A DNA stretch of 51,003 nt. It comes from a virus. Lineage: Duplodnaviria; Caudoviricetes. The stretch covers positions 1 through 51,003 of the IMG/VR virus record IMGVR_UViG_3300027691_000041. One strand, written 5' to 3'. Below are positions 1 to 22,204 of this stretch, piece after piece. The notes under the pieces were generated by a model. It saw nothing but the letters and a program-made list of their open reading frames with translations, did not search any database and was not told the DNA's origin. Within the stretch, counting starts at the first letter, position 1, and every line of letters begins with the position of its first letter. Made by a program: the position numbers and the translations under genes.

Positions 1-264
1 AACCTCTCGGGGATGAGCGCCTTGCCCTCGTTTCTCGGCAAGCCAAAGTTTCAGCAGGCCAGCAACGCGCCCAAGATCCCCGTTTACTTTAGCCAGTTCG
101 TTGACAGCGTTAATGTCGATGACTGAGCGAATCTGTTGATGAAGTCCGGCAGCGCGAAGATATGCGGAAAGCGATAGATTAGCGGACGCGGCAAGACGCG
201 CTATCTCGGCGCGTTCTTCTTCGGTTACGAATACCTTGATGGGCTTATCGCGTGGGCGTGTCAT
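1..264 (-). CDS. traJ: Relaxosome accessory protein TraJ (RP4-type RHH/MobC), truncated by the window edge
   Basis: Manual translation from ATG 264 gives MTRPRDKPIKVFVTEEERAEIARLAASANLSLSAYLRAAGLHQQIRSVIDINAVNELAKVNGDLGRVAGLLKLWLAEK, which closely follows RP4 TraJ (PIKVY..ER..I...AGMSLSAYL...ELARINGDLGRLGGLLKLWL). ATGA overlap with the upstream gene. Absent from the ORF track. Confidence 0.9.
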   Translation of the reverse strand, partial: MTRPRDKPIKVFVTEEERAEIARLAASANLSLSAYLRAAGLHQQIRSVIDINAVNELAKVNGDLGRVAGLLKLWLAEKRGQGAHPREV

Positions 265-872
265 TTGTTCAATTCTGCATCCAGGTCTTTCATTGCCTCG
301 GCGCGGTTTCCGCCTTCGTTCAGAATGCGGAGCAATTTTTTTGCCGCTTCCCTGAGCTTGTCGTCTGGCCTATCCGGTACCCACCCGCCGTCATCCAGCA
401 TTTGCAAGTACTCAATCCCGTCGTTCACCCATACGTGACTGGCGCTGTTCCAATTTACGCGCACCAGATCAATGGTTGCCCCTGGATGGTGTTTGAACCA
501 ATCTCGCAAATTGTCCGCAAGATCATTCCCAATCGGCCTGCAAACTTGGGGCACGAGCCCCGGCTTTCGCATGATGTAAAACACGATTTGCTCAGGCTCA
601 ACCTCCTGCGCTGGCGGTGTCGCAGGCATTGTCCGAATGTAGTCGATTAAATCCGCCCGTGACTCAGGGGAAAGTTCGTCTAGCAATTCACGGACTCTAT
701 CAGCGGCCCGCCCTGTTGCTGGCGGTGTCGGGGCGGCTGCGAGCATCGCTTTGTAAGCGTATACGGGGTCAGGGGCATCGCTCGTTTTCTCATTGCCGTA
801 TTTCCACGCTGCGTCAGCCATTGCTTGAGTAGGCTCAACCGGCACTAATTGCCATCCTTCCGGTATTTTCAT
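261..872 (-). CDS. Phage hypothetical protein (Eaa/DUF551-like N-terminus)
   Basis: IPEGWQLVPVEPT..M...AMLAAAP motif typical of lambdoid early genes; GGAG RBS. Confidence 0.65.
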   Translation of the reverse strand: MKIPEGWQLVPVEPTQAMADAAWKYGNEKTSDAPDPVYAYKAMLAAAPTPPATGRAADRVRELLDELSPESRADLIDYIRTMPATPPAQEVEPEQIVFYIMRKPGLVPQVCRPIGNDLADNLRDWFKHHPGATIDLVRVNWNSASHVWVNDGIEYLQMLDDGGWVPDRPDDKLREAAKKLLRILNEGGNRAEAMKDLDAELNK

Positions 873-881
873 TTCGGCTCC

Positions 882-1271
882 TTAATAGTGTTCTTTGTAT
901 GACGGCAAGTTAGCCTTCCATTCCCGATACGATTCAGCATCCTTCCGCAACCGCTTCACTTCCTCGTTGAGTGTTGATAGCCTCCCTACCAGAGCGGATA
1001 CTCCGGCGTCTAACGCATTCAGATCGTCGTCTGATGAGATAAGGTGCGCCCATACGCCATCGGCCAGAGCATCACCCATAGTCTGGATGCCGTCTCGGAG
1101 CATTCTCAATTCGGCCTTGAGCGCATCAATCTCTGGCTGGCGACGAGCAAATATGCACAAAGCCAAATCTGTCCTGCTGTCAACATACGGGCCGTCACCC
1201 TCTCTTACTCTTCTTAGCGGAAGCCCCAAATCTCTCGCCAGATTCTCGAATTCTTCTCTTTGCTCGTCCAT
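882..1271 (-). CDS. Phage hypothetical protein (Ead/Ea22-like, coiled coil)
   Basis: Likely start MDEQREEFE at 1271 (TAATG coupling); paralogous to the next ORF. Confidence 0.6.
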   Translation of the reverse strand: MDEQREEFENLARDLGLPLRRVREGDGPYVDSRTDLALCIFARRQPEIDALKAELRMLRDGIQTMGDALADGVWAHLISSDDDLNALDAGVSALVGRLSTLNEEVKRLRKDAESYREWKANLPSYKEHY

Positions 1272-1549
1272 TATTCTTCCTTGTATTTGGCGATCATGGT
1301 TCTGGCCTCGTCGCATATCACATCAAGTTCATCTGCAATCTCGATAATCCTGTGATGGGAATAAATGCGGTGCGATGGATATTTATCGTTCCATTGAACG
1401 ATCTTTCGCAAAGCCGCCAGCAGTTCGTCGCGTTCTTTAACTAGTGCGGCGTTTTCGTCGTCAAGTCTGATTCGCTCACGTGTTTCCCTGTTCAGGCTGT
1501 CATAGAGGTCTGCGTTATCATGCTTGAGCGCATCAATCTCTGGCTGGCG
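1116..1549. repeat. 27-bp direct repeat (1116-1142 and 1523-1549)
   Basis: CTTGAGCGCATCAATCTCTGGCTGGCG occurs twice and encodes RQPEIDALK in both adjacent ORFs. Confidence 0.9.
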
Positions 1550-1672
1550 GGCTTGCCATGCTTCGAAAGCGCCATAGGTCTTGTAGTGGACATAGATGTT
1601 CAATTTGTTTTTCGTGAGCACATAACCTTTGGGATAGGCCCATCTCTCAAATTCCTCTCTCTGTTTTTGCAT
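1271..1672 (-). CDS. Phage hypothetical protein (coiled coil)
   Basis: QREEFE..W...AWQARQPEIDALK motif; AGGAGG RBS; coupled to its neighbours. Confidence 0.65.
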   Translation of the reverse strand: MQKQREEFERWAYPKGYVLTKNKLNIYVHYKTYGAFEAWQARQPEIDALKHDNADLYDSLNRETRERIRLDDENAALVKERDELLAALRKIVQWNDKYPSHRIYSHHRIIEIADELDVICDEARTMIAKYKEE

Positions 1673-1836
1673 TATTCAACCTCCTTTACGCTGAGAATGT
1701 CCCAATCCTCCATGCCAGTTTCGAGTTCATCGACTGAATGATCCCAAGGATTGCTCTCAGCTTCTTCTATCGTTTCGCATTCAACGGTCACGGTTTTCGT
1801 AACAACGCATTTCATTTTTACTTCGAACTGTTTCAT
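1672..1836 (-). CDS. Small acidic hypothetical protein (54 aa)
   Basis: Manual translation MKQFEVKMKCVVTKTVTVECETIEEAESNPWDHS...; overlaps the start/stop of both neighbours. Confidence 0.65.
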   Translation of the reverse strand: MKQFEVKMKCVVTKTVTVECETIEEAESNPWDHSVDELETGMEDWDILSVKEVE

Positions 1837-2006
1837 GGTTTTTCCCCTTTATTTGATTCCAGTATTCGGTATCCGCCATCGATATAGTTGGACGACCAGT
1901 CTTGCCATGCTTGTTCCAATTCTTTTTCTGTTGTTTCGTCGGAAAACTCCACCTTCTCTTCTTGTCGCTGTCCTATTCCGATTGATAGCGTGAATCTAAC
2001 TAGCAT
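1833..2006 (-). CDS. Small acidic hypothetical protein (57 aa)
   Basis: Start MLVRFTLSIG at 2006 with AGGAGG RBS; first gene of the leftward operon. Confidence 0.65.
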   Translation of the reverse strand: MLVRFTLSIGIGQRQEEKVEFSDETTEKELEQAWQDWSSNYIDGGYRILESNKGEKP

Positions 2007-2071
2007 TGTTATTTCCTCCTGATTAGGGTTTTGCTTCAAGATTTCCGTCGAGCCAAAGGCGAGTAAAGGAA

Positions 2072-2125
2072 GTATTGGGGAGTCGAAGCGCGTAGCGCGT
2101 AGGCCCACAATACACATCTTGCCAT
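2072..2125 (+). other. oriT: Origin of transfer oriT (RP4/IncP-type, MOBP); nic between 2121 and 2122
   Basis: Imperfect inverted repeat GTATTGGGG...CGCG-TAG-CGCG...CCCACAATAC (2072-2113), then exactly 8 nt ACATCTTG^CC. This matches the RP4 layout (IR, CTATCCTG^CC). Lies between divergent traJ and traK. Confidence 0.85.
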
Positions 2126-2149
2126 AGATTTATAACCAGACTTTAAAGA

Positions 2150-2178
2150 AATATATTCGAACGACTATTGACTGTCAA
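2150..2178 (-). promoter_or_regulatory. Sigma70 promoter for the leftward (traJ) operon, reading across nic
   Basis: TTGACA(2178-2173)-N17-TATATT(2155-2150). Confidence 0.6.
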
Positions 2179-2197
2179 GTCTTTTTGATATATTTAG

Positions 2198-2278
2198 ATA
2201 GTTATATTGACTTATAAAGAGTTATCGTGAGATAGTTAAGTTGCAGTCAAGAGTTATGAAGAGTATAAGAGAGTTTTG
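2198..2278. repeat. Phased ~10-bp AGTTAT-like repeats upstream of traK (putative TraK/StbA binding array)
   Basis: AGTTAT 2200, ACTTAT 2210, AGTTAT 2220, AGTTAT 2252, AGTATA 2262, AGTTTT 2272. Confidence 0.5.
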
Positions 2279-2302
2279 CAGTGTTCTTAGGGAGTTCAAG
2301 CA

Positions 2303-2617
2303 ATGAAGGCTTCTAAAGAGAAGAGATTGGGAGCTGGCAGAGTGGCTTTCCTGGCAAGAAGGGATGTCTTCAGGGAAAAGATCGAAGCCGGTCACACAAT
2401 GGCAACCGTGTATGAAGAATACGAGAAGCAGTTAGGAATCAGTTACAGCCAATTTGTTCACTACGTCAATCGTTATATCAGGAGCAAACCAGATGGAGAT
2501 AAACCAGGAATCGAAGCAACAAACAAAGAACCAGTCAAGAAACCGGAATACGGTCAGCCAAAGTTCAAACGAACTGAAAACAGAGACGACCTCTTCAAAC
2601 CTAAACCAAAGGAGTGA
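2303..2617 (+). CDS. traK: TraK family oriT-binding protein (StbA-like)
   Basis: GRVAFLA...GH....Y...LGISYSQF..Y.NRYI core plus a K/P-rich tail, as in IncP TraK; first gene after nic. Confidence 0.8.
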   Translation: MKASKEKRLGAGRVAFLARRDVFREKIEAGHTMATVYEEYEKQLGISYSQFVHYVNRYIRSKPDGDKPGIEATNKEPVKKPEYGQPKFKRTENRDDLFKPKPKE

Positions 2618-2624
2618 ACAAGAA

Positions 2625-3344
2625 ATGAATCAAGCGCATTTCATTCTGCAAGCGAAAGGCGGGGTCGGTAAATCACTAGCGGCCTCTGTAATCGCGCAAT
2701 TCTTGCGTGGCCGTGGTGAATCTGTCGAAGTAGTAGACACAGATCCATCGAACGCAACCCTTTTCGGGTACAAGGCATTAAACGTACAACGATTAGACTT
2801 GATGGAGGGCACGGTGCTGAATGAAGGAAAATTCGATTCACTGATAATGCGAATTATCAGCGAGGATACAAACTTTGTTGTCGATAATGGCGCGTCCAGC
2901 TTTATTCCGTTGAACAACTACCTGATAGAAAACTATGTAGTCGATATGATCGCTGAGCATGGTAAACAGGTGATTGTTCATACTGTCATAGCTGGCGGTT
3001 CATCCTTAACCGACACTCTCAACGGTTTCGCGGATTTAGTTGAACAGATGCCTGAGAACGTTCGAATTGTCGTGTGGCTGAACGATCATTTTGGAAAGAT
3101 AGAGTATGGAGGAGACACTTTCGAGGAAATGAACGTTTACCAAAAAAACAGGGATCGAGTACATGGTATCGTTCGGTTAGCGAAACTAAATCCCTCAACA
3201 TTCGGCGCGGATATGGAGAAAATGCTTACCGCAAAGTTGACATTTGATGAAATCAATATGTCTCAAGACTTCGATCTGATGAAAAAATCCCGCCTGTTTA
3301 GGGTTAAACAGGACATCTATCGACAACTGGAAGAGGTTATTTAA
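2625..3344 (+). CDS. traL: TraL P-loop ATPase (StbB-like)
   Basis: LQAKGGVGKS, DTDPSNAT, VVDNGASSFIPL and VIVHTVIAGG motifs are colinear with RP4 TraL; start ATG 2625 with GGAG RBS. Confidence 0.9.
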   Translation: MNQAHFILQAKGGVGKSLAASVIAQFLRGRGESVEVVDTDPSNATLFGYKALNVQRLDLMEGTVLNEGKFDSLIMRIISEDTNFVVDNGASSFIPLNNYLIENYVVDMIAEHGKQVIVHTVIAGGSSLTDTLNGFADLVEQMPENVRIVVWLNDHFGKIEYGGDTFEEMNVYQKNRDRVHGIVRLAKLNPSTFGADMEKMLTAKLTFDEINMSQDFDLMKKSRLFRVKQDIYRQLEEVI

Positions 3345-3345
3345 G

Positions 3346-3768
3346 ATGGTTAACGTTGATGAAATTCGGAAGGAAATAGCGGTTAAGCACGACATCCTTC
3401 TGCCAGAAAATGATTCGTCCCTGGTGTTGGTTACGATGGTCGATTCGTTACTGACCCAATATGTGGATGATTTGAACAAACAGCAGGAGGAAAACGTAAA
3501 GGCTTTGATAAATGCAGTTCAGCAAGGCATTGCCGAAGGGAAAAAAACAGCCAAAGAAATTATTACCAAAGGCGCGGACTACGTGAGTAACGAAGCCCAC
3601 ACCGCTGTAGTGTCAGCAATGGATGAGGGCCGGGAACAGGTGAGGAAGGATCTGATCCTGGCGGTGACTCGAATCGAAGAGGCCCGAATAGCATCCGCAA
3701 GGTGGGCAGCGGTATCAAGTCTCTGTGCCGCTATCACTGTAGGCGCAATGCTGGCGCATGTTTTCTGA
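3346..3768 (+). CDS. traM: TraM (IncP-type) with C-terminal hydrophobic segment
   Basis: EIRKEIAVKHDI.L..D..LVL resembles RP4 TraM; traKLM synteny. Confidence 0.8.
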   Translation: MVNVDEIRKEIAVKHDILLPENDSSLVLVTMVDSLLTQYVDDLNKQQEENVKALINAVQQGIAEGKKTAKEIITKGADYVSNEAHTAVVSAMDEGREQVRKDLILAVTRIEEARIASARWAAVSSLCAAITVGAMLAHVF

Positions 3769-3907
3769 AGTGGTTGCGGTTGCCCTGGTCGTCTTGGCAA
3801 TTGTGATGACCGGGGTTATGGCCTCTGCGGTCTACGCGAACCGGGATGCCTTGCCAGTGGTTGGTTTAGTGTTCTGCGCCCTGGTTGCCTTTGGGCTTTT
3901 CTGGTAG
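3758..3907 (+). CDS. Small two-TM membrane protein (49 aa)
   Basis: Manual translation MFSEVVAVALVVLAIVMTGVMASAVYANRDALPVVGLVFCALVAFGLFW; overlaps the end of traM. Confidence 0.5.
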   Translation: MFSEVVAVALVVLAIVMTGVMASAVYANRDALPVVGLVFCALVAFGLFW

Positions 3908-3914
3908 ATTTTTT

Positions 3915-3985
3915 CGGAGTTATCCACATCGAAGCCTACCGCACCCTACCAAGTGCAAGAGTAGGCGTAGTTGTGGGTAACTCCG
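3915..3985 (+). other. DnaA-box hairpin, copy 1 (candidate ssi / single-strand priming site)
   Basis: CGGAGTTATCCACA pairs with TGTGGGTAACTCCG; inner stems GCCTAC/GTAGGC and GCAC/GTGC; perfect DnaA box at 3920-3928. Confidence 0.55.
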
Positions 3986-4615: not shown

Positions 4616-5041
4616 TTAGAATGGAATGTCGCTGTCGTCGAATACGCCGGTTGGCGACGGTCCAGTAGCAGGAGTTCGATCTTCCTTGCGCTCATCGTCT
4701 TTGCCATTCCCCTTGCCGCCGAGCATCTTCATTGTATCGGATATGATTTCGGTGTTGTAGCGATCAACACCGGCCTTGTCAGTCCATTTGCGCGTAACAA
4801 GCTTGCCTTGGATAAAAACCGATGCGCCCCTCTTCAAGTATTCCCCGGCAATCTCGGCGAGCTTGCGGTAAAAAACCACACGGTGCCATTCCGTGCGCTC
4901 TTCCTTCTCTCCGTCTTTGTTCTTCCATGATTCAGTAGTCGCTACCGTGATGTTGCAAACCGCTTCCCCATTGGGCATGTAACGCAGTTCGGGATCTTTG
5001 CCCAGGTAGCCAATGATTTGAACCTGATTGAATGAAGCCAT
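4616..5041 (-). CDS. ssb: Single-stranded DNA-binding protein
   Basis: N.V..IG.LG.DPE..Y, TEWHRVV, G.L.TRKW and C-terminal DDSDIPF. Confidence 0.97.
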
Positions 5042-5250: not shown

Positions 5251-8200
5251 TTAAGATTCTGCCGCTGTTTCTTCCCGGTATCGCTTGTTGAACCGCGCCA
5301 TTGCCGCGCGTTTCTTTTCCTCGATCTCCTTCCGAAGTTGTGCTTTGTTCGGTACGTCTCCCTTATCCAGCGCGATATCACGTTTTCTAAGCTGGCTGAG
5401 TATCCGCTTGGTTTCTTTTGCGGCGGTGGCAAGCCTCAATTCTCCCGCGTGCGCCTCTCGTATCCTTCGCACCATTTCGGTATCGCCTTTCTGCCGGTAC
5501 GTCTTTAGCTCATCAGCCGCAAGTTCCACGGCTTTTACCGCTTCGTAGTATTTCCGCTCTGTCTGGAATTCTGGCCGCGCGCCCACGAAGATATTCAGGA
5601 ATGGAATTTCTCGCGCTTGTAACTGGACGTCTCCCGCCGCTTTAATGGGGCCGCTTACCGTTTGCATGTACGTACGCCCAGCGCCCCCGGCAACGGATGA
5701 AACCGCGAAGTCAAAGAAAGCCGGGTTGACGTTGATGAAACCAGGTCGAACCTCATTGCCGCCAGTGACATTGTTCAAGCGTTCGGCCAGCCATTTAGCA
5801 GGCGCACTGGTGGATTTGAAACCCATCTGGTACTCGGGATTCGGTACGCCAAAGGGGTTCTGTTGGCGGCGTAGCGGATTCCCGGCAAAGTTCTTGTTCT
5901 CTGCCCACTGAATGAAAGGATCGGCCACGGTAGGGGCCACATACTGAAGCCCAGATCCTGCTTGTCCGGTGGGACTGAAGGCGTCAAGGAAGACTGAGGC
6001 CAGATCCACGGCGCTTTTTACAGGACTGTAGTTCTCCCGGAAAATCATTTCGCTCAACTTGCGGCCAGTGCTGGCAAAGAAGTTATACCCATAGGGCATG
6101 GGAATAGTTACCGGTTGACCGCCTACCATGAAGACGAAGTTCATGGCCTTGGTGTGTTCCGGCAGTTGATCGTAATCGTTCTCTCCGTCCTCGTCGTCGT
6201 CTCCCGCCATTGCTCGTGCAACGACATCCATCAGGAAGCCGGAGAGAACCACGCCAGCAACGATCTTGCGAACTTGTTTGTTAGATAGCGCCTTGACAAG
6301 CCGCGCAGTGCCCTGAATGGAAGCATTCATGAACATGTACCAAGCGTTCAATTCCACGCTCTTTGCGCCCCGCGTATTGAAGTTTACGGTAAGGTTCTTT
6401 GCGAGCTGCGCGGCTTTGCCCTCGGATAAACCGGATCGTCGTGCAGCAACATAGGCCGAAAGCCTTGCGCCGTTCTCAACTGCGTTATTGGCATCCTGAA
6501 CGATATCCCACCAGGATTTCAGCGTGCGCCTCGCAAAATTCACCTTCCCTGGTTTCATGACTTCGAGTTCCTTCTTCAAGGACTCCGCACGCGCCCCGAT
6601 GGTGTTGTAATGCTCCATCCATCCAGTTTGACCACCAGCCGCCTTGAATTCCTCGGCATACTTCGCCCACTGCGATTTATGCTTGCCGCGAGACAGCGCC
6701 CACATTCCTTTAATTGCTGCGGGCACATCCCGGAACACTTCCCTTTTCTTTCCGGCAATCTCGGTATCCGACAAGTTTACGAAAGCTGTTTGCAGGTCGC
6801 GCAAGAAATTGCGTGCGACAAAAACAGGATTGGCGGTGGTGTTCATCGTAGCCAGGACTCGCGTGAACCTGCCCACCATTTGCGTTACTTCTCCCAATTG
6901 CTGGGAAGCCATGTTCTTCATGCTGGCCGCAAGCCGCATTGCTTCGAGATTGCTTTCTGTAAAACTGATTGTGTGTTCTTCACCGTCAATCTTTAGGGTT
7001 AAGACTTCAGGCCGGTTCTTGTAAGTCGGGTCCACTCTTTCAACGACGAATCCCGAAACAGGGTCCACGGTACGAAGCATGGGTGCGTTATCCAACGTCC
7101 ACAAGGAAGGGTCCGGGTGTGTTGAAGCGAACTGGAAAAGCGCACGGTCTACTTTCGCCTTTTCTGAGCGAATAATCGCGGCCTCATGCTGGGCTACGAC
7201 GTGCGCAAGAATATTGGTTACATCCTTGTTTGAACCCGTGGCACGCTTCGATTCCTTACCCCTGATGTTGAACCCCTGCCCCACCTTTGGCATGGCGTTT
7301 CCATCCACTTCCCCGCGATGCAACGGTACATAATGCTCGTACTTGCGGTTCCATGCGTCAATGGCGTCTGCCTTCTCTAAGCCGCCCTCCACGTAGATTT
7401 GCCGCGTCCGTGATGTGATGGCGTCAACGATGGACGAAACGCGCTCTAGCGCCTTGGCGGTACCGTTCTTGGTGGCTTTATCAAGGATACTTTTCGCTTC
7501 CTTGTCGCTCATGCCAGAAAGAGCGGTGTTGTCTCCCTGAAAAGGTTTCACCAGGCGCAATGCCTTCAGTTTGTCCAGCGCATCTACATAGTCCTTCACG
7601 TTCGGAAGTTTGCGTAGCTGGGCGAGTTCCTGCTTTATCATTCGAGCAAGCGACTCGTCGGCTATTCCATCCTCAATGTCGGCCTCTGCCTGCCGAAGAT
7701 CCCGGCGCTCCTTCAGGAATCTTTCAACATCCTTGTCTTTGGCAAGGAAATCACGCTGCTTTTCCAGCGCTGCCGTCTGTGTCTTGAGTTCGGATTCGGT
7801 CGGATTGATTTCGTGCATTGCGGCGTTGCGGCTTGGCGCGTGCAGCGCGTGCAGATACTCTTCCACATCCTCGTAGGAAACACCCGAGTCATGAATGGCC
7901 TTTAGGAGTGGATCACGCATCTGTTCTTCGAAGGTATCCATCCTGGCGCGAACAGTGCCGGAATAGCGTTCTTCGGCAAGCGCGGCGTCCTCGTCTTCGG
8001 TTACGGGACCAGCGCGTTTCTGGATGTCCTTAAGCGGTTTGAAACGATCCTGGAAGTTGAAGATAAGAGAGTCTGTGATTTTTTCGAAACGGTCCTTGCT
8101 GAAGAATGGCGCCGAGTCCTGATTGAGTTCTACCCCGCCATCCCCTGGTTCTTGCCCGAACCGTTGCCCTCGTCTATTTTTTGCAACGTAATCTGTTCCG

Positions 8201-11200
8201 GTGTCGTCTGTTGCCCCTCGCAAAAAGCCTTCACTTGCCAACAGGACCGCATTGCCTGCTTTCAAATCTGCCGCAGAGCCATAGGCAAAGACAGAACCGG
8301 AGCCTGTGCGCCTTGCGAAACGCCGTATTGCGGCTCTTGCCAGAGCAGGAGTAACGAAGGTCTTTGAAGGAATTTCAGCAATAGCTCGTACACCGGTCAC
8401 TCCCGATACGCCTATGAGCGTTACCCACCCTTCTTTCTGGAAAGACTTGCCGATTTCAACGACGGTTTCAGGGCTTGGAACATCCCTACCGATGTATTCA
8501 TGCGGCTTGGATGCCTTAATGAGTTTATCTTCCCCGAAATCTTTAGTAATGACTTGAGATTTGGGATTGCCACGTCCGGGCATGATCGTTGCGTATTTGT
8601 TTGAATTGATGACGACATGGCCTTTCATGCCCGGAATTATTCGAGCAAGCTGTTTTGTTGTTACCACGTCTTCATTGCTTGGCGTAGGGTTGCCTGAAGG
8701 ATGATTGTGCAACATCCAGTAACCGTCAGCACCAGAGGTCCGCATCATTTCCCTGATCCAGTCTAACCCCTGTTGTTGGGTCATTCCTTTCGGGAAGATG
8801 GGAGTGTTACCGGGCAACCGTACCGTTATCCCGGAAGCGTGAACAATCTTGTTGCCTTTGGTGAAGAAGAGACGGAAAGTTTCGTATTGAGGATCGCGGT
8901 AGACTTGCGCGAGTTCGGCTAGTCTTTCCGGTGACGTGATTTTTTGACCGACGAGCGCGGCGACGCCTTCCCTTTGTAGGGTTTCAACAATTCCGTTTGC
9001 GAGGATTCGGCCTCCCCTTGGTACGGGCTTTGTATTCCCCCGCACAGCCAGGGAAGGCTTTTCTGTTTCTTTTGTTTTTTCTTTTGGGGCATGGGCCTTT
9101 ATCGCTTCGCTGATCCTGCCTAATATCTCTGACGTTTCAGCGTCGGCTTTTTTCATTGCCGCTGCGTGCGCCCTGAACCATTTTGATTCCGCTGCGGTAT
9201 CGGTACGCTTTCCGTCCAGAATCTCTTTGGCGCGAGTAATCGCGTTATTGAGACTTCGTTCCTTGCCGGTTTCCTTTGACGCCGCACGGCGCTTTATCAG
9301 CGCGTCAATGTGTTGGCGGATTGGTGGTGCGCTGGGTGTGGCCGGTTTCTCTTCAGGCGCTTTTGCAGGTGCGGGCGCGGGTTTAGGTGCGGGTTTAGGT
9401 GCAGCCTTCGGCTCTTCCTTCTTTACTTCGCTATTTTCTTTGCGGCTTTCTGGAGCGCCTGCATTATCCTTGGGTTGCTTTGGGCTTTGCGTGCCAGGTT
9501 CACCAGTGGGTCGGCTGAAGAGGTCTTTGGTGTCCGGTTGTTTTTCGGTGATACGCTCTTTTGCATTTTTCAGTAGTTCCGGTTTGGTTGGAGTAGGCGC
9601 ACCGAAAATGTCCTCAGTGGAGGTGTCTATGCGCGAAACCGAATCGTAGTACGTACGGATAAAGTCGGCTATCTTTTTCTGAGAGCGTATATTCTCATCC
9701 AGCACGCGGAGAATGGCGCGGGTATCCTCGTTGACTTCTTCCCCGAACAGTCCGATTTGCGAGAGGTATTCATCAACATTCATCCCCTGCGCTCTGATCT
9801 TCGACAGGGTTTCTACCGCGCCTACCAGTGCTTCGCTTATATCGAGTTCTTTCGGCAAGTTTCCGGCTTTTATGTCGGCCCTGACTTTCGCTGCCGCGCC
9901 TGCCGCCCGGACCAGTGCGCCGGATATGTTTCTCAAATCGTTATCTGTCGATTCAACCAGTCTTTCCAGCGTAGGGTTTGATCCGTACGCGGAGTAGAGC
10001 ATCGCGTTTCGAATCCGGCGAACGCCCTCCTGAGAAAGCCTGCCGTCCTTGTCCACAAGGGAACCGAGTTCTGCCGCGCTGTATCCACCCAGAGAATGCC
10101 GTATGTTCTGAATATTTCCGGTTGTTAGCGCAATGTCCCCGGAATCGGTTATCTCAAGGTTTTCGAGTCCCTGCATACGTTCCGCATCGATCTTCGCCAG
10201 TTCCAGTCCGGAATACTGCAAGCCTGTCCCGGAGTTCGATGCAATGGCGAGTTTGCGAATATCGAACGGTTGCGTAATGCGCCGGACCAGTACCGGCTTT
10301 TTCATGCCTTCCAGCTTTGCCGGATCAATGCCTTTCGCTGCTGCGTCGGCTTTGAGGTTCGTCAGGTAATTGGCAGCGCTGCCCTGGTCATAAGCGCGGC
10401 TGATACCTTCAAACCGGCCATTGCCCCCGACAATCAAGCCGTCATGCGAAAGTGTTGGCGAACCTACGTCCATTACCGGAGAATCGGCCAGTCGGCGGTA
10501 ATCCGGAGAGTTGGCGATGCCTTGAACCTGAATATCGGAAGCTGCGCGGGAACGGTCACGCGGCTGATTTTTGCCTTCCTTGATGGTTGCCTTGATCGAA
10601 TCAGCGTCAACAACGTCCCATTGCGCGGGTAGCGATGTATTGTCCGGTAAAACCACCTGAAGATTTGCGGCATTCATGCTGGTTGCCGCTGGTTGTGGAG
10701 CCGCTGGCTGCACTATCGCGGTTGGAGCAGGGGTAAGTATCGAGTTCTGCTTCTTGGTCGTTTCCTTGGCCTTCTCCGCGCCGGTGGCAACTATCCTTTT
10801 TACCGTGTCTTCCGGTTTTTCGGGAGCGTTCGCAATAGCGGGATCGATGCCCTCTTTTCTACGACGTGCCAGTTCGTCGGCAGCAATCTTCTTGGCCCGT
10901 TCGCTTCCCCGGTTTGCCGTGTATTCGAGCGCGTCATTTGACATATCCCCGGCTGTTTTCCCGGCAATCATTGGCGGCAGATTCTTGGCGATGACTATAG
11001 GGTTTTTGGCGTATTCCTCGTCTCTTTGCCGTTTGAGTTCCGCTTCCCGAACCTTGTCTTCAGCCGTTAACTCGAATCCCGGTTTGTTCGCAAGGTTGAA
11101 ATCGGCCTGAGTGGATACGGGCGTTACTGGTTTCAGGTTGCCTTCAGCGTCACGGGTAAGTTCTATGCCTGCTACCGAACGCGCCTTTGGCACCGCGACG

Positions 11201-12432
11201 AATTTATCCGCTTCGGTTGGATGAGCAATTGCTTCATGCTGAATACCAGTCTTTTTAGTTTCGGCTTCCGCTGTCGCTTCCGCGTCTTCGGGGGAATCCA
11301 ACAGGCGTTGTAACCCTTTGCGGTTGAGTGCGCTGGTAGCTGCAATCTCCCCGATACTCGTTCCGAGTCCGGCGAAACCCTCTACTACCGCATCTATCGC
11401 ATTCGCCTTGCCCGTGGCCGCGAGTTCGCCCAGGTATTCCCCGGCTCCTTCTCCTATGGTTTCAAGGGCTACCGCACCGCCTGTTCTGGCAAGCCTGTTG
11501 CCCAACTTGCTTGCACCCTGCTTTGCCAATTCTTGCGCGGTCTTGACGGATTCCGCTATCTCTGGTGTTTCCATCGCCGCCCGTCGCGCTGCGGCACTGG
11601 TCACGTCTATCCCGTTATCTGCCAGTGTTTTGACGGTGGCGCGTTCGACTGCACGCCTGGTAGTGTTTGTGATGAATTTGGTTACACCAAGAGTGGCCGC
11701 ATCGATTCCGGTAATGATTCCACCCTTCACAAGCCCCTCTTGACGTACGCGGCTTTGTTCTTCAGGCGTGAATTCCTTGTCCTGTGCCGCTTCCAGCGCC
11801 TTATGTCCGGTTTCAAGCCCGATATTGGCCGCTGCAAGTCCTGCCAATCCGCCTATTGCGGCCCCGACTGGTCCACCAAAGGAACCAGCAAGTGCGCCCG
11901 CGCCCGCCGCGCCTAACGCCGCCCCTGAGTTCGGTATCTGTTCGGCAACCATGAGGCCGAAGCCACGCGGGTTATCGATTGCGGCCCCGCCCACGGCCTT
12001 GATGCCTTCCCAAAGAGAGGGATTTTCCCCGAGCGCTCGCTTGCGTTCTTCTATGTGCTGGTAGAACCTTTCCAGATCCGGGTCTTTGGGAGCGTCCGCC
12101 TGCTCCTGCGCTGCCGATACCACGCCTTGCGCGTCTCCTTGCATGGTGTCGGCAGTCGCGCCCAAGGCTCGCAGTGTGCCCTTTGCGCCTTCCCGGATCG
12201 TTCCCATAAGTCCAATGGGCTTGGGCGCTTCCGGCTGTTCTGTCGGCGCGGATTGGAATGAGCGTGTGGATTGCGCGAGTTCCTTCAGTTGCAACTCTGC
12301 ATCATCGGAAAGATCGAAAGTTCTCGGCCTTGAGCGAGAAACGGGAGCGTCAAGCCGCCGTGATCTGCGTTCCTGTCTTACCAGCTCGCCGGTAGCATCC
12401 TCATCGGGAAGTAGCGTGTCATTCAGGGGCAT
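5251..12432 (-). CDS. Large polyvalent virion ejection protein (DdrB-like ParB, JAB/RadC-like and LPD38-like domains)
   Basis: 2393 aa at the end of the late operon; NQPRDRSR...P.L..DG.IVGGNGR (ParB-like); E.F..F...HNHPSGNPTPSNED (JAB); C-terminal NLTVNFN...WYMFMNA...PMPYGYN (LPD38-like). Confidence 0.75.
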   Translation of the reverse strand: MPLNDTLLPDEDATGELVRQERRSRRLDAPVSRSRPRTFDLSDDAELQLKELAQSTRSFQSAPTEQPEAPKPIGLMGTIREGAKGTLRALGATADTMQGDAQGVVSAAQEQADAPKDPDLERFYQHIEERKRALGENPSLWEGIKAVGGAAIDNPRGFGLMVAEQIPNSGAALGAAGAGALAGSFGGPVGAAIGGLAGLAAANIGLETGHKALEAAQDKEFTPEEQSRVRQEGLVKGGIITGIDAATLGVTKFITNTTRRAVERATVKTLADNGIDVTSAAARRAAMETPEIAESVKTAQELAKQGASKLGNRLARTGGAVALETIGEGAGEYLGELAATGKANAIDAVVEGFAGLGTSIGEIAATSALNRKGLQRLLDSPEDAEATAEAETKKTGIQHEAIAHPTEADKFVAVPKARSVAGIELTRDAEGNLKPVTPVSTQADFNLANKPGFELTAEDKVREAELKRQRDEEYAKNPIVIAKNLPPMIAGKTAGDMSNDALEYTANRGSERAKKIAADELARRRKEGIDPAIANAPEKPEDTVKRIVATGAEKAKETTKKQNSILTPAPTAIVQPAAPQPAATSMNAANLQVVLPDNTSLPAQWDVVDADSIKATIKEGKNQPRDRSRAASDIQVQGIANSPDYRRLADSPVMDVGSPTLSHDGLIVGGNGRFEGISRAYDQGSAANYLTNLKADAAAKGIDPAKLEGMKKPVLVRRITQPFDIRKLAIASNSGTGLQYSGLELAKIDAERMQGLENLEITDSGDIALTTGNIQNIRHSLGGYSAAELGSLVDKDGRLSQEGVRRIRNAMLYSAYGSNPTLERLVESTDNDLRNISGALVRAAGAAAKVRADIKAGNLPKELDISEALVGAVETLSKIRAQGMNVDEYLSQIGLFGEEVNEDTRAILRVLDENIRSQKKIADFIRTYYDSVSRIDTSTEDIFGAPTPTKPELLKNAKERITEKQPDTKDLFSRPTGEPGTQSPKQPKDNAGAPESRKENSEVKKEEPKAAPKPAPKPAPAPAKAPEEKPATPSAPPIRQHIDALIKRRAASKETGKERSLNNAITRAKEILDGKRTDTAAESKWFRAHAAAMKKADAETSEILGRISEAIKAHAPKEKTKETEKPSLAVRGNTKPVPRGGRILANGIVETLQREGVAALVGQKITSPERLAELAQVYRDPQYETFRLFFTKGNKIVHASGITVRLPGNTPIFPKGMTQQQGLDWIREMMRTSGADGYWMLHNHPSGNPTPSNEDVVTTKQLARIIPGMKGHVVINSNKYATIMPGRGNPKSQVITKDFGEDKLIKASKPHEYIGRDVPSPETVVEIGKSFQKEGWVTLIGVSGVTGVRAIAEIPSKTFVTPALARAAIRRFARRTGSGSVFAYGSAADLKAGNAVLLASEGFLRGATDDTGTDYVAKNRRGQRFGQEPGDGGVELNQDSAPFFSKDRFEKITDSLIFNFQDRFKPLKDIQKRAGPVTEDEDAALAEERYSGTVRARMDTFEEQMRDPLLKAIHDSGVSYEDVEEYLHALHAPSRNAAMHEINPTESELKTQTAALEKQRDFLAKDKDVERFLKERRDLRQAEADIEDGIADESLARMIKQELAQLRKLPNVKDYVDALDKLKALRLVKPFQGDNTALSGMSDKEAKSILDKATKNGTAKALERVSSIVDAITSRTRQIYVEGGLEKADAIDAWNRKYEHYVPLHRGEVDGNAMPKVGQGFNIRGKESKRATGSNKDVTNILAHVVAQHEAAIIRSEKAKVDRALFQFASTHPDPSLWTLDNAPMLRTVDPVSGFVVERVDPTYKNRPEVLTLKIDGEEHTISFTESNLEAMRLAASMKNMASQQLGEVTQMVGRFTRVLATMNTTANPVFVARNFLRDLQTAFVNLSDTEIAGKKREVFRDVPAAIKGMWALSRGKHKSQWAKYAEEFKAAGGQTGWMEHYNTIGARAESLKKELEVMKPGKVNFARRTLKSWWDIVQDANNAVENGARLSAYVAARRSGLSEGKAAQLAKNLTVNFNTRGAKSVELNAWYMFMNASIQGTARLVKALSNKQVRKIVAGVVLSGFLMDVVARAMAGDDDEDGENDYDQLPEHTKAMNFVFMVGGQPVTIPMPYGYNFFASTGRKLSEMIFRENYSPVKSAVDLASVFLDAFSPTGQAGSGLQYVAPTVADPFIQWAENKNFAGNPLRRQQNPFGVPNPEYQMGFKSTSAPAKWLAERLNNVTGGNEVRPGFINVNPAFFDFAVSSVAGGAGRTYMQTVSGPIKAAGDVQLQAREIPFLNIFVGARPEFQTERKYYEAVKAVELAADELKTYRQKGDTEMVRRIREAHAGELRLATAAKETKRILSQLRKRDIALDKGDVPNKAQLRKEIEEKKRAAMARFNKRYREETAAES

Positions 12433-12441
12433 TCCGGTTCC

Positions 12442-13959
12442 TTACTTCAGGGAGTCGCGTCGAACAGCGATTTCTTGCGCTTTCAGTGCAAGGGATTTCT
12501 TTTGGTTCACATCAAGGTTTGGTGTTTGCAAAGCTTTCTGGATTGCATCCATTTCTCCTTTGAGCGCTTGCCGTTCTTTTTCCCTTTCTTTGAGCGCTGC
12601 CAGTGATCCAGGCTTGGGACCGGCAGGCTGTGCCGCTTTCGCAAGTCCTTGCGCCGGTGCTGCGGCACTCGCATTCCCCGTGGGTTGTTCAGCGCTTTTT
12701 GCCTTGCGCTTGCCGCCAAAACGCGGCAGGAATTCCTTGTTCTGCCATGCCTCTATCTGTGCAGGCGTGCCGTTTACCGGATAGCTAACCATCGCATCCG
12801 TGAACTTGTGATGCTGCCTCGAATCCAGTTCTTCCCCGAGCTGGTCTTCAAGGAAGGTTAGATACTGATTGGCAGCGCTATCGAGTACTTGACGTTTTTG
12901 CGGGTCTACCTCGAATTTTCCCTCATCGTTCTTTACTGAACTCACGCGGTCAAAGCTGGTATCCCGGCGCTTGATTGCGGTATTGATTTGTGCTTCGGAT
13001 GAACGGCTTGGCTTTAATCCGCCCGGTTCGTATCTGTCCGCTTTTTCTGCGTTGGCTTCCGCAAGTGTGCTGCGGCTTTTCAGGTAGCCAATTTCAGCAT
13101 CCGTCTTGCGCCGGTCAAGCGATAGTTTTTCTTCGCCAAGCCGTCGTCCATGTTCAAACTTGCGCTCGTCAAGATTCGCTTCCCGTTCTTCCTTTTGCCG
13201 CCGGTCCTCTGCCTTAAAGAATTCCTCCGGGTCCATCGTGGATCGGAGCCAGTCGCGGACATTGACGGTCTGTTCGCCCTGCCCCTTGATGCTGATCTTC
13301 CAGTTCATATCGTTTGGGTCGTCGGCCTTGACCTTGACGGGCAACCCATCCAGTTCGATCCCGCCGCCCTTGAGAGCTTCTGCCGCCGCCCCCGGATTGT
13401 TCTGCATGAATGCCATAGCCGCACGAACCCCGCCCCGCTTCTCGGTTTCATAAGCCTGGTTCATGTACTTTATGCCCTCATCCTGCAAGCCATGCTTTGC
13501 CCAAATATTGGCAATGTCGGTCAGATGCTTTGGGGTGTACATTCCTGTCACCATGCCTTTTTCTAACACTTTGGCAGGCGGTAATTCCGGCTGTTGTGGT
13601 TGCGGTTGTGTCGCTGCGGCTAGAGTGCCAGGCACACCGCTTGCCTGTTCCGCTGGCAGACTCGCGGCGAGTCCAGCTTGCGGCATTGATGTTTGCATAG
13701 GTGCTGCCGCCGCTTGCGCGGGCGCTGGTGCTGCGCCTTCCCCGGTAGCTTGGTTGTGATATGCCGCTATCTCACGCAAAGCATTATTCCGCCGATCCCT
13801 CATTTCCTTTTCGGAAGCGTACTGATCCTTGCGGAGTTCGTGTATTTCAGCATCCCGCTCATCTGCCTTGGCAAGTCGCTCCGATTGTGTAGCTTGTAAA
13901 CCAAGCTGCATCCCGTTTGTAATGCCTTGGGCTAAACCGCCCGCGAATCCACCAGACAT
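12442..13959 (-). CDS. Putative DNA ejection (internal virion) protein
   Basis: MSGGFAGGLAQG start, A/Q-rich helical composition, position in the podoviral ejection cluster. Confidence 0.6.
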   Translation of the reverse strand: MSGGFAGGLAQGITNGMQLGLQATQSERLAKADERDAEIHELRKDQYASEKEMRDRRNNALREIAAYHNQATGEGAAPAPAQAAAAPMQTSMPQAGLAASLPAEQASGVPGTLAAATQPQPQQPELPPAKVLEKGMVTGMYTPKHLTDIANIWAKHGLQDEGIKYMNQAYETEKRGGVRAAMAFMQNNPGAAAEALKGGGIELDGLPVKVKADDPNDMNWKISIKGQGEQTVNVRDWLRSTMDPEEFFKAEDRRQKEEREANLDERKFEHGRRLGEEKLSLDRRKTDAEIGYLKSRSTLAEANAEKADRYEPGGLKPSRSSEAQINTAIKRRDTSFDRVSSVKNDEGKFEVDPQKRQVLDSAANQYLTFLEDQLGEELDSRQHHKFTDAMVSYPVNGTPAQIEAWQNKEFLPRFGGKRKAKSAEQPTGNASAAAPAQGLAKAAQPAGPKPGSLAALKEREKERQALKGEMDAIQKALQTPNLDVNQKKSLALKAQEIAVRRDSLK

Positions 13960-14637
13960 TTATTCATCCCCCCTTAGTGCGTCGGCCAAAGCCTGAGTTA
14001 ATTGATCGCGCCTTTGCGCGTACTTCCGATACAACTCCGGGTGAGTGGAGAGGGTATATCGCCACCGATCTTGGGAATCGCTCTTAAAAGCCGTGCAGTC
14101 GTAGCAATCCAGAGAGGAATGCTTAATTGCGTAATGTTTGGGTATCTCCATTACGGAAGCGAGATAATCAAACACCTGCTGGCTCGTCCAATTCTCTATC
14201 GGGTGCAGTCTAGTCATTCCCTCTATCTTGTCACCATTCCGCGCCGTCGATTTATGGCTGTCTTCATTGCGCTGCCCGTACACTATCTCCGTCGCGCCAA
14301 TTCCCTTGGCCTCAGTTAATAACGGGTATGCGATATTCTCGAAACAGCATGAAATATAACTCTGGATCATTACCGGTTTTGCCGACGTGTGCGACTGTCC
14401 AAGGCGGGTCCAGTCGATGGGCACAATGTCGGCAGGTATTCCCTCACGCTGGTTCTGTTCTGCCTGATTTGTGTGTACGGTAATAACCGGAACGATCCCT
14501 TCTGCGTAGCGCACCATCTCGAGGGTTTCCGGGTACGCCTTTCCGGTATCGACGTAGATTGCACAGTCGAGGCTATGCCTGCAAAGATGCAGGCAAGCCA
14601 TAGAATCCTTGCCGCCTGAGAATGCAAGGACTCTCAT
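13960..14637 (-). CDS. PAPS reductase-family (PP-loop) protein
   Basis: AFSGGKDS, DTG, GQRNEDS, HPIENW and SLDCYDCT motifs. Confidence 0.85.
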   Translation of the reverse strand: MRVLAFSGGKDSMACLHLCRHSLDCAIYVDTGKAYPETLEMVRYAEGIVPVITVHTNQAEQNQREGIPADIVPIDWTRLGQSHTSAKPVMIQSYISCCFENIAYPLLTEAKGIGATEIVYGQRNEDSHKSTARNGDKIEGMTRLHPIENWTSQQVFDYLASVMEIPKHYAIKHSSLDCYDCTAFKSDSQDRWRYTLSTHPELYRKYAQRRDQLTQALADALRGDE

Positions 14638-15446
14638 TAATAGACTGCCCCGGCCATTCCCAGCGTGCCAACAAGACTACCTATCCCCCCCATTGCTTCC
14701 TGCTGCATCTGCGCACCCTGTAACGCGCCTTGATACAGTCCAAGGCCGAGATTTCCTGCTGAACTGTTGGAGTTGGCGGCTCCACCGAACCATTGCATCG
14801 CCGCCGCGTTGTTCGCATTGCGTATCTGTGAATTGTTGGCGAGATTGCCCACGGCGTTATTTCCCGCATTAAGCGCCATACTGTCTGCTGCAATCCCGGT
14901 ATTCGGCATGTTGCGCCCGAATTGTGCTGCCCCGGTTCTTAATGCGATGCCTTGTAGTTCGGTATCTCGTCTGGCCTTGTTCATGGCACCGGCTGTGTCC
15001 GTAGCCTGAGCAATTGCGTTTTCGTTGGACATGGCGGCAAAGCGCCCGGAATTCGGATTAACGCCCATTGCCCCGAGCGCCCGCGCATTCTGTTCCTGTG
15101 CCGCGCCGTAGCTGCGAGTTACATCCGCCGCCGCTTCCGCCGCCATGCGCTCCTTTCGTTCGGGAGAATCGAAGCTCATGGCTTCGCCTACCATGCGCTC
15201 TTCAACCGGCTTGAAAAGGTTCTGGTAGATGCTCCACTGATCCGCCGCGCGTGCTTCGTTTGCATCGCCGCTTCGTATCTGTTGGTTGACGATGCCACGA
15301 ACCAGTGGATCTTCAACCGCCGCCCTTTCTCTCTCCCATGCTAATTGCTGTTTTGCGACGTCGAGCTGTTGCTGTGCAATGTCTGCGTTTTGCTTCGCGG
15401 CTTGCCCTATAAGAGGATCAGGCTTCGGAATCTTAGGTTTACACAT
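14637..15446 (-). CDS. Putative small ejection/pilot protein
   Basis: MC..K.PKPDP start, A/N/G-rich, GVNPNSG motif, hydrophobic Gly-rich C-terminus. Confidence 0.65.
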   Translation of the reverse strand: MCKPKIPKPDPLIGQAAKQNADIAQQQLDVAKQQLAWERERAAVEDPLVRGIVNQQIRSGDANEARAADQWSIYQNLFKPVEERMVGEAMSFDSPERKERMAAEAAADVTRSYGAAQEQNARALGAMGVNPNSGRFAAMSNENAIAQATDTAGAMNKARRDTELQGIALRTGAAQFGRNMPNTGIAADSMALNAGNNAVGNLANNSQIRNANNAAAMQWFGGAANSNSSAGNLGLGLYQGALQGAQMQQEAMGGIGSLVGTLGMAGAVY

Positions 15447-16050
15447 TCTGGTTCTCCAATATCTTCGTTAATCCGTTCTCAACATGGCGATAGCCGAGCC
15501 TTTGAAAAAACAGTCCGGCCCGGTTTACAGTTTTTACCGTTACGGTTATTTCCTTGACTCCCAGGTGTTTCAGGGCAGACTCGCAATAGGCAATAAAATG
15601 CTTTGCCACATTCCCCTTTCGGGCTTCCGGTAGCAAATAGAGCGTGTCTTCCGTGGCAATAAGCGTTTGTGTGTGTGTGCTTCTATCCAGATACATTGCA
15701 CAGTTGCCAACGAGCTTTCCTTCATGCCTTATCGTGAAAAGGATGTAGCGCCCCGCCCGTTCGTAGCGAATAAAAGTCGTGTAGTCCGGATTGAGCGTGA
15801 GGCCGTGGCGATGCGCTTCTGTTTCATCCCAATGCGCTTTGTGCAATGCCCGCATTTCGCCCTCGGTAGCGTCCATTTTCTCCACCGAGAAAATAAAGCC
15901 TTCATGTTCAAGGGGAGCAATTTGCTCTATATGCTCTCCCGAGATAAGCGGTTCGAGCATTGATGCTGCCCTGATAATATCCAATGCCAAAGAGGGTGTT
16001 ATTTCGCGCCCCATGCTGGCGTCCAAAATGGAAAACAGAACTCTGTTCAT
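15439..16050 (-). CDS. GNAT-family acetyltransferase-like virion assembly protein
   Basis: EDTLYLLPEARKG.VA...F..LGY pattern; usual podoviral position before ejection genes. Confidence 0.75.
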   Translation of the reverse strand: MNRVLFSILDASMGREITPSLALDIIRAASMLEPLISGEHIEQIAPLEHEGFIFSVEKMDATEGEMRALHKAHWDETEAHRHGLTLNPDYTTFIRYERAGRYILFTIRHEGKLVGNCAMYLDRSTHTQTLIATEDTLYLLPEARKGNVAKHFIAYCESALKHLGVKEITVTVKTVNRAGLFFQRLGYRHVENGLTKILENQNV

Positions 16051-17490: not shown

Positions 17491-17493
17491 TTA

Positions 17494-17982
17494 TCAGGTT
17501 TCCTTCAACTCAACTGAAATCAATTCCGCATCGCTCGCTGCCGTATCGAGCGCGACATTGCGCTTGATTCGGAGGCGGAAAGTGTCACCCGCCGCGATAC
17601 TGTCCATATTCGCGCCGTTGCTTATTGCGACATTAAGGATCAAGGGAAGTCCACTTGTAGCGGGCACGGTTGCGGCAGTCACCGTCTGGTCGGCAGCAAA
17701 CGAATCCGTATCAAGATTGGTCCCCGCGTCCATGCGCTCGAACGCAACCAGCCAACCGAGCGTCCCGGTTGTAGCACTGGTCAGCGCTGCGTGGATGTAA
17801 ACAGTTATCCCGCCACCGGCATAATTGCGGGGAAGCAGGCAGGTAAAGATTGCTATTTCTTCCGTTGTGGTGTCGAAGTCCAGAACGGGGTGTCCATTCC
17901 TAGAATCCACTGTTGCATAGCCGCTGGCAGGTGGCTCGTTGTCCGAAGGGAAAAGTGAGAGTAATGTATCTCCGCTTGCCAT
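17494..17982 (-). CDS. Virion structural protein (beta-rich)
   Basis: T/A-rich beta composition within the tail gene cluster. Confidence 0.5.
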   Translation of the reverse strand: MASGDTLLSLFPSDNEPPASGYATVDSRNGHPVLDFDTTTEEIAIFTCLLPRNYAGGGITVYIHAALTSATTGTLGWLVAFERMDAGTNLDTDSFAADQTVTAATVPATSGLPLILNVAISNGANMDSIAAGDTFRLRIKRNVALDTAASDAELISVELKET

Positions 17983-17983
17983 C

Positions 17984-18229
17984 TTATGCTCCTGTTATAT
18001 AGCGCCTGGTTACGACATACTTCAATAATTGCGCTTTTTGTTCAGACGTAAGCGCCGCCCTTGCTGGTTGTGGAATTGCCGAATTGAGGGACAGCGCGTT
18101 ATCGCTTACCCATTGGTCGATTGCGTTCACTGCCGCTCTCACGTCAATTTTCGTTAAGCCAGGAAAACCCATTTCACTCATCGCTTCCCCCGCCGCATTA
18201 AGTCTTTCTTGATTCGTCATCGTAGCCAT
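17984..18229 (-). CDS. Hypothetical virion-module protein
   Basis: Tightly packed in the late operon. Confidence 0.55.
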   Translation of the reverse strand: MATMTNQERLNAAGEAMSEMGFPGLTKIDVRAAVNAIDQWVSDNALSLNSAIPQPARAALTSEQKAQLLKYVVTRRYITGA

Positions 18230-18232
18230 GAT

Positions 18233-18616: not shown

Positions 18617-18639
18617 TTTAAATACTCCTCTTAGTTGAT

Positions 18640-22046: not shown

Positions 22047-22204
22047 TTGATAAGGAGAAAAACAGCAGTGATTCCAGCTGCGATCACCGCAGCACCGGTC
22101 CACTTAGAAGCCTTCAATTTGTCGAGCAATGAATCAGCGCCCGCATCCATCTTTTTGTTAATTGCCTGAAGTTGCTCTTTCTCTCGTTGAAACTTCGTCG
22201 TCAT
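22043..22204 (-). CDS. Small C-terminal TM protein (53 aa), holin candidate
   Basis: Manual translation MTTKFQREKEQ...KWTGAAVIAAGITAVFLLIK; GGAG RBS. Confidence 0.5.
   Translation of the reverse strand: MTTKFQREKEQLQAINKKMDAGADSLLDKLKASKWTGAAVIAAGITAVFLLIK

Follow-up and report, generated by a model that had tools for sequence, protein, structure and literature searches.

The presence of an apparent conjugative transfer locus at the edge of a tailed-phage genome raises the question of whether one and the same element might spread both as virus particles and by conjugation. The locus in question lies at the left end of a 51,003-bp stretch (hereafter the window) that is the whole of the IMG/VR record IMGVR_UViG_3300027691_000041, and had been described in a first-pass annotation as an RP4-type relaxosome locus inside a complete tailed-phage genome, i.e. 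a candidate mobilisable phage-plasmid. Analysis of the window, its flanking DNA and its relatives indicates that the phage-conjugation hybrid is real and recurrent: phage-type open reading frames (ORFs) occur inside the traJ operon, the traKLM genes abut the late genes, and all of these are on one contig and intact where seen. Going by gene content and order, we consider it probable that the element is a non-integrating conjugative phage-plasmid with dual mobility, by virions and by conjugation. The window would represent three quarters of the likely circular 68.2-kb genome of a temperate podophage, the host of which is likely to be Nitrosospira.

Profile searches with 67 proteins of the window (including NCBIfam, Pfam and PHROG) recovered family matches for each of the transfer genes that had been proposed. 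The minus strand at 1..264 encodes the 5' part of traJ, i.e. 88 of the 111 codons of the full gene, the rest lying outside the window, with matches to PF21983 and NF010451 (E 4.6e-25; 88 bits, below the cut-off of 134). The plus strand carries traK (2303..2617), traL (2625..3344) and traM (3346..3768). traK and traM match PF17273 and PF11657, respectively, above cut-off, while traL, encoding a ParA/MinD-type, StbB-like ATPase, matches NF010461 (E 4.8e-83) with 278 bits, below the cut-off of 360. The traK product, an oriT-binding protein that is StbA-like by the literature, is 48% identical to an annotated TraK-family protein of the plasmid pNRS527-1, and it had no match in the PDB. A 25-nt inverted repeat (3915..3985) between the convergent traKLM and ssb/late-gene transcripts is likely to act as a terminator. 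The ORF at 3758-3907, previously counted within the transfer locus, is probably a phage gene, because its 38% identical homologue adjoins the giant virion gene of a prophage devoid of tra genes.

The oriT core (2037..2123, plus strand) has hairpin arms at 2072-2077 and 2108-2113, followed by 8 nt (2114-2121) and a predicted nic at 2121/2122. As read from the nucleotides alone, this is the inverted repeat and nic geometry of an oriT, as had been pointed out. The 87-nt core can be aligned to the interval between traK and traJ in 47 other tra loci, with 86% identity to that of pNRS527-1 and 79% to that of the plasmid pSN1216-29. Across 41 distinct aligned loci, 230 of the 246 cells of the 6-bp outer stem are paired, changes having occurred in both arms, and one stem column breaks in 15 of the 41 rows; shuffled pairing gave a mean of 205 and a maximum of 217 of 246 (2000 shuffles), a comparison among related rows that is not to be read as a probability. 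Of the 41 loci, 33 share an identical 10-nt nic word, and immediately beyond it conservation drops from 0.89 to 0.61. About 80 nt upstream, most plasmid loci carry the word again in inverted orientation (window 2030-2043); this copy is degenerate in three of the four aligned phage-borne elements, L089 being the exception. In run X2 (see below) an alternative 1,409-bp path replaces the traKLM block (window 2123-3918), beginning 2 nt past the predicted nic, and contig C65 of the related element G130 also starts at this point; this could be a nic-bounded module exchange or the mere end of conservation among relatives.

The spacing of oriT and traJ is not that of plasmids; the two are 1.86 kb apart, with five small phage-type ORFs in between on the minus strand (261-872, 882-1271, 1271-1672, 1672-1836 and 1833-2006; PHROG matches for three of the five, and PF23768). 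The overlap behind the proposed coupling of traJ to a phage-type gene is real, traJ sharing a 4-nt ATGA with the ORF upstream. A sigma70-like promoter match (2150..2178, minus strand, 11/12) points through oriT to these five ORFs and traJ, and a weak one (2207..2236, plus strand, 9/12) points towards traK; both are consensus matches only, from a region with 8 such sites versus 6.0 expected.

A metagenome scan with TraJ, in which 27 of 64 parts were covered, gave at least 78 loci, including one (L086, from a 68,211-bp contig) that is 100% identical to window 1-10,264 over 10,264 bp. The left extension of the element that it provides (L086 10001-20264) contains the end of traJ, a NinX-family phage gene, traI (547 amino acids, aa), traG (622 aa), traF and slt, followed on the opposite strand by an ORF of 140 aa and a convergent trb operon, of which trbI, trbH, trbG, trbF and part of trbL are seen. 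Thus, the relaxase, coupling protein and trb genes that had been predicted to lie left of position 1 are found there. TraI scores 472 bits against NF041893 (cut-off 250), TraG 776 against the coupling-protein family NF010453 (586), TrbG 220 against TIGR02775 (181) and TrbL 171 against TIGR02783 (129), while TraF, TrbI, TrbH and TrbF match their own families below cut-off. The relaxase appears intact, retaining Y21 and H129-H136-H138, which we take to be the catalytic tyrosine and the three-histidine motif of MOBP relaxases. The transfer locus is real, and "mobilisable" under-called it, as the element looks self-conjugative and belongs to a family.

The gene order of the left extension is that of the Nitrosospira plasmid pNRS527-1 and of pSN1216-29. 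The nearest transfer systems found, in a comparison that did not include RP4, are those of the pSN1216-29/pMBUI2 and pNRS527-1 type, which share the order traM-L-K/oriT/traJ-I-G-F-slt, the convergent trb operon and the oriT core. Protein identity to pNRS527-1 is 42-82%. PMC6232296 describes pSN1216-29 as self-transmissible and proposes the same putative nick word. The two plasmid records have RepA and par genes and are without virion genes. Unlike them, the present element has phage ORFs splitting oriT from traJ and traJ from traI, has no primase or topoisomerase gene after slt, and encodes a relaxase about 100 aa shorter than that of pNRS527-1. The short relaxase was considered as a phage-specific mark and rejected, since L088 has the short form without phage genes. 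The TrfA family PF07042, i.e. the IncP-1 replicon, was not recovered in G000, G001, G196 or G130; the element would work like Tra1/Tra2 of RP4 but is not filed as IncP-1. As a separate observation, pNRS527-1 (L002 15511-35394) also has giant genes annotated as SpvB/TcaC-domain, encapsulin and "neuraminidase-like".

Several assemblies place the tra and virion genes on one molecule. Base 1 of the contig of L086 corresponds to window position 40,176, and hence the far end of that contig is the only part of it that could contain the window's last 10,827 bp; the window's last protein is recorded from a contig of exactly 68,211 bp. All 10 tested proteins, from both window ends and the tra/trb region, are on one 68,229-bp contig. 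In run X1, a 34,258-bp unitig (depth 11.7) spans traJ through trbL and continues 6,207 bp past what the contig of L086 has left, oriT-traKLM is connected with the virion genes on a 17,880-bp unitig (depth 12), and these two unitigs are linked by one of 750 bp (depth 9.4). Run X2, which like X1 may be a source of the window record, covers the same stretches in shorter pieces, with one 1,082-bp contig crossing the traJ junction. An assembly chimera is contradicted by the equal depth over tra and virion genes, with no break between them; GC is 0.53-0.54 in the tra, trb and virion parts alike. The two differently opened assemblies make it likely that the element is a circle of about 68.2 kb. The window itself was without terminal repeats, is classed in IMG/VR as a "provirus" and as 73% complete, ends on the right at exactly a stop codon and on the left cuts traJ at codon 88; it is a trimmed 51-kb piece and not the complete genome it had been called. 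Outside the window the circle has 17,208 bp, 10,000 of them read and 7,208 unseen; by the gene lengths of G130, about 5,730 bp of the latter would be taken up by trbL to trbA, leaving about 1,480 bp. Going by the circle and by G130, the operon with recT, yqaJ and a DUF1643 gene, of leftward early type (47782..51003, plus strand), would run on into trbA-trbB-C-D-E-J-K-L.

The same layout is observed in four further elements (L085/G001, L089, L214/G196 and G130), which share both junction types at 44-85% protein identity. The common order is the giant virion gene, (ssb), traM-L-K, oriT, small phage-type ORFs that differ among the family members, traJ, further ORFs and, where the contig reaches, traI; L085/G001 and L214/G196 both also carry the capsid gene. 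The distance from nic to traJ is 866-2,786 bp in all five phage-borne elements versus 119-227 bp in 51 of 52 other loci (the motif being present in 52 of 81). In G130, exact 55-nt overlaps at the ends connect contigs C65, C2 and C152, and C155 is placed by gene content only; the four add up to 69,497 bp, with the giant gene interrupted and a further gap around traK. Here the recombination genes are followed, after three ORFs of 56-76 aa, by trbA-B-C-D-E-J-K-L in the same orientation, and TrbB, TrbD, TrbE, TrbJ, TrbL, TraI and TraG pass curated cut-offs. A comparison of the best 120 of 673 TraI homologues with the best 120 of 264 homologues of the virion protein encoded at 14637-15446 (51 and 30 distinct contig sizes of at least 20 kb) recovered eight common sizes, against a null mean of 0.03 and a maximum of 2 in 20,000; a further match at 1,810 bp was below the size cut. 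Judged by matching size in bp, an indirect measure confirmed for one contig, eight further contigs carry both relaxase and virion protein; on the confirmed one, from a Nitrosospira sp. metagenome-assembled genome, the two accessions are 10 apart. Four of the eight cluster at 65-72 kb, and one is of 131,088 bp, twice 65.5 kb; sizes of 65,216, 67,764, 70,210, 72,089 and 43,854 bp are also among these co-occurrence contigs. The 131,088-bp contig holds two different TraI and two different virion proteins, and is perhaps two family members assembled in tandem.

Three family members are filed as truncated proviruses. Scans of IMG/VR with TraL singly, with TraG and with the end-of-window pattern yielded nothing, an alignment scan with TrbB yielded one unrelated record without this capsid, and no tra, trb or TrfA neighbours were seen at 71 YqaJ loci. 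Among 20 capsid-positive IMG/VR records, mostly the longest of 80 capsid matches and themselves mostly fragments, TraL was found in two, a tyrosine integrase in two and TrbB in none.

In MOBP systems TraJ and TraK bind oriT, TraI nicks it and TraG couples it to the Trb channel. In the present element, loading of TraI onto oriT would fall to TraJ and TraK; the cut at 2121/2122 would be made by TraI, and TraG would pass the strand on to the Trb channel with its traKLM end leading. In a lysogen the element would stay outside the chromosome under the control of cI, one of two divergent cro-like and cI-like repressors (45401..46241). The sole replication genes found are a lambda O-like gene, with five internal 23-nt repeats (43771-43877), and its P-like neighbor (42638..44261, minus strand), and replication of the lambda O/P type can possibly support a lambda-dv-like plasmid state. 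The lysogenic replicon could thus possibly be this O/P origin, or else a Rep encoded in the unseen 1.5-kb gap. Dimers might be resolved by a small serine resolvase (PF00239; 34157..34900, minus strand), which has upstream TGTCA/TGACA-type, res-like repeats with subsites read by eye. Induction would lead to headful packaging of this same circle and to its release by lysis. No Rep or ParAB was found among the 67 scanned proteins, and TraK/TraL are a possible candidate for partition: PMC3098194 places TraK_RP4 with StbA and TraL_RP4 with StbB, notes that this operon enters the recipient first, and reports that StbA stabilises R388. This grouping suggests the missing partition function, with segregation proceeding via TraK/TraL acting like StbA/StbB.

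The integrase is absent from the window, as had been noted: the 51 kb gave no match to a tyrosine integrase or large serine recombinase family, and none is annotated in the 10-kb extension. Integration by XerCD at dif, prompted by an XafT-family match (30.5 bits, cut-off 70), was rejected, no dif-like site being found above chance. The transfer module appears to form the distal part of the recombination operon, a place taken in relatives by xis-int or parA-trfA. In G192, xis-int is at the end of this operon, which also holds ssb and NinX; the G172 prophage has an integrase at the same end, plus a homologue of window ORF 1271-1672; and the complete G201 (61,595 bp, with terminal repeats) has parA, a ribbon-helix-helix (RHH) gene and trfA at the same place, together with a resolvase. 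The G201 genes (G201:C1 20462-23373) mark a TrfA-replicon phage-plasmid. These arrangements lead us to infer that the integration module was replaced by the transfer module, which divided the run of small ORFs of that operon. On balance, it seems slightly better supported than its contrary that these elements define a widespread and long-standing soil podophage family of ammonia oxidisers, with a 65-72-kb circle that is both packaged and self-conjugating, a transfer module in place of the integrase, segregation by TraK/TraL, and swaps between integrating, plasmid and conjugative states at one locus.

Several observations count against a non-integrating element with dual mobility, and are given here with the alternatives. 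The name phage-plasmid agrees with the apparent circle and the integrase-free window, but does not fully apply, since the window and G130 yielded no plasmid-type Rep, TrfA being the one family searched for. The presence of trbA-E, J and K in the element itself, and with them of the VirB11 (TrbB) and VirB4 (TrbE) components of a P-type (MPF-T) mating channel, is deduced from G130, and no TrbE on a 68.2-kb contig is among the best 120 of 3,460 matches. The remainder of about 1,480 bp could house an integrase or a Rep, and in G001 and G196 the resolvase is not between terS and terL.

An unlikely alternative is that only one route works, the element being either a conjugative plasmid with a phage half that has ceased to package the entire genome, through excess length or by transducing in the manner of a gene transfer agent, or a phage that keeps tra/trb for exclusion or plasmid stability. 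Its size speaks for this: phages of this capsid family are mostly of 55-68 kb (60-row spread of 396 records), and 68.2 kb is at the edge of the range, slightly above the largest of the 60 listed (67,978), while G130 would be of about 71 kb. It has also been argued that hybrids are usually impaired in the lytic cycle (10.1101/2025.08.29.673033, PMC10879196). Further, host-family chromosomes keep a capsid module devoid of replication genes, and hence intact virion genes need not mean self-packaging. The capsid protein is matched in 40 of 190 Nitrosomonadaceae genomes, 39 of them at 79-90% (a count that includes the unpublished G152, which is used for no other claim). A structural-only module from terS to the ejection protein is seen in G140:C1 1648110-1673830, G172:C2 350284-370580 and G171:C33 38800-59800, none of which showed the giant gene, replication genes or an integrase; it has 85-90% capsid identity to the window and is mostly present in one copy in about 38 related Nitrosomonadaceae genomes. 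The same host genes flank it in G140 and G172, and it is likely to be a domesticated, gene-transfer-agent-like prophage.

The tra genes have moreover been exchanged with plasmids. The TraL tree mixes phage-borne and plasmid-borne copies, with three changes in all 200 bootstrap trees; as the phage-borne copies are not one clade, modules appear to have passed between phages and plasmids, and some of the purifying selection may have taken place on plasmids. The idea that the phage-borne tra modules go back to one origin was considered and is not supported by these three changes in TraL, while a quick TraG tree does not decide. Matches to TraL occur in 67 of the 190 Nitrosomonadaceae genomes, mostly at 40-48% and of plasmid type or of the type of integrative and conjugative elements (ICEs); of the two best, one (G130) is phage-linked and the other (G146) is not. 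Against a single working route stand the intactness of both halves in members with near-saturated synonymous sites (pS 0.66-0.84, pN/pS 0.15-0.47 and no stops in 15 of 15 gene pairs) and the clustering of the co-occurrence contigs at 65-72 kb, as a packaging limit would give. The shortened relaxase may be added, though one locus without phage genes also has it. As an aside, unrelated lambdoid prophages (L218-L228) have a small DNA-binding gene together with one for a TraL-like ATPase (36-38%), which in L218 and L228 are closely followed by an integrase-like ORF, and no relaxase or coupling-protein matches were found in these loci.

It is quite improbable that the element is conjugative and virion-forming but integrating, like an ICE that is also a prophage, by means of an integrase in the unseen interval, the relaxase or the resolvase. 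The 1,480-bp gap has room for an integrase, relatives have int at the same place, no Rep was found, and the IMG/VR class is "provirus". However, in G130 the same interval holds only the three ORFs of 56-76 aa, neither an integrase nor TrfA was found on its four contigs (69,497 bp), none of the five members showed host genes at a contig end, and the assembly of the element looks circular; the "provirus" trim is consistent with the tra/trb part having been cut away, and no dif-like site was found above chance. A recent cointegrate, a phage-ICE tandem or an assembly chimera is very improbable and already largely refuted by recurrence in independent samples, for although such fusions are in print and the three assemblies of the element may share the same reads, the genes interleave with ATGA overlaps, a second sample covers the traJ junction on one contig, four other elements share both junction types, and the tra genes lack a flanking plasmid Rep/par or ICE integrase block and do not differ in GC.

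The preferred reading, that of a conjugative phage-plasmid, has parallels in part among known systems. Phage-plasmids (P1, N15 and the families of Pfeifer et al.) and G201 are temperate and carry a resolvase like the element, whose genome is apparently circular and, as far as seen, integrase-free; G201 has parA-RHH-trfA. No dedicated Rep was found in the present element. The temperate podoviruses like 933W and F116, with an N4-gp56-family capsid, share the capsid, a P22-like portal, the giant ejection protein and lambdoid control. Conjugation elements are reported in only 6 of 222 E. coli phage-plasmids and read as cointegrates or artefacts (PMC10123127); the phage-ICE tandems of PMC13651849 are described as such "rather than a hybrid element", with no transduction reported; and the cointegrate p1002-1 (10.1101/2025.03.14.643293) joins phage and conjugation genes. 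In the tandems and the cointegrate, too, both gene sets are on one DNA, but as two elements side by side, in the tandems each with its own integrase, whereas here no such pair is seen, the operons are interleaved and the total is near capsid size. The prophage Phi1207.3 is, like the proposed element, reported to move by cell contact; PMC4260502 states the mechanism to be unknown, and its text has 0 occurrences of "relaxase" and "type IV".

The published cases (including PMC10123127 and PMC7969092) are cointegrates, tandems or conversions losing phage genes, and a 2025 review states that combined spread by virus particles and direct cell-to-cell DNA transfer had not been found. In 50,697 phage records TraL had 0 matches and TraI one (25% identity, 19-kb record). 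A paper on phages of ammonia oxidisers (10.64898/2026.05.02.722434) has 0 occurrences of "conjuga" and "relaxase", and 10.64898/2025.12.20.690322 uses the phrase "conjugative phage-plasmids", its Supplementary Table 3 of potential phage-plasmids possibly bearing on novelty. No description of this phage family was found in a literature search that left most subscription journals outside. A conserved family with both machines interleaved in a capsid-sized genome would break the dichotomy between phage and conjugation, and would make directly testable both the choice between killing and conjugating and the way in which a virus could enter cells without its receptor, in likely hosts that drive soil nitrification. 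It would also explain why such elements escape notice, as virus pipelines trim the tra/trb part as "host" DNA.

The remainder of the window has the intact gene set of a temperate tailed phage (terminase, portal, capsid, tail, lysis and repressor), in agreement with the first-pass annotation, which had listed virion, lysis, control, resolvase and SSB genes. On the minus strand these include ssb (4616..5041); podovirus tail and ejection genes (5251..20676), among them that for a 2393-aa protein with LPD38, ddrB-ParB and RadC domains; the endolysin and its neighbours (20939..22103; PF00959, phrog_7); late genes (22267..33971) with a tail fibre, an adaptor, a scaffold-like protein, the major capsid protein (25614-26885), the portal (30508-32733) and the large terminase (32721-33971); and the small terminase with spanin-like genes (35168..36668). 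Beyond these, the window encodes an Acb2/Tad1-type anti-defence protein (36668-36916), a fusion of DUF3560 to a methyltransferase (37433-39184), an N6/N4 methylase (44373-45404) and a member of the PAPS-reductase family (13960-14637). The cI-side operon further contains a FliA-type sigma factor (46596-47288), which scores above the NCBIfam cut-off.

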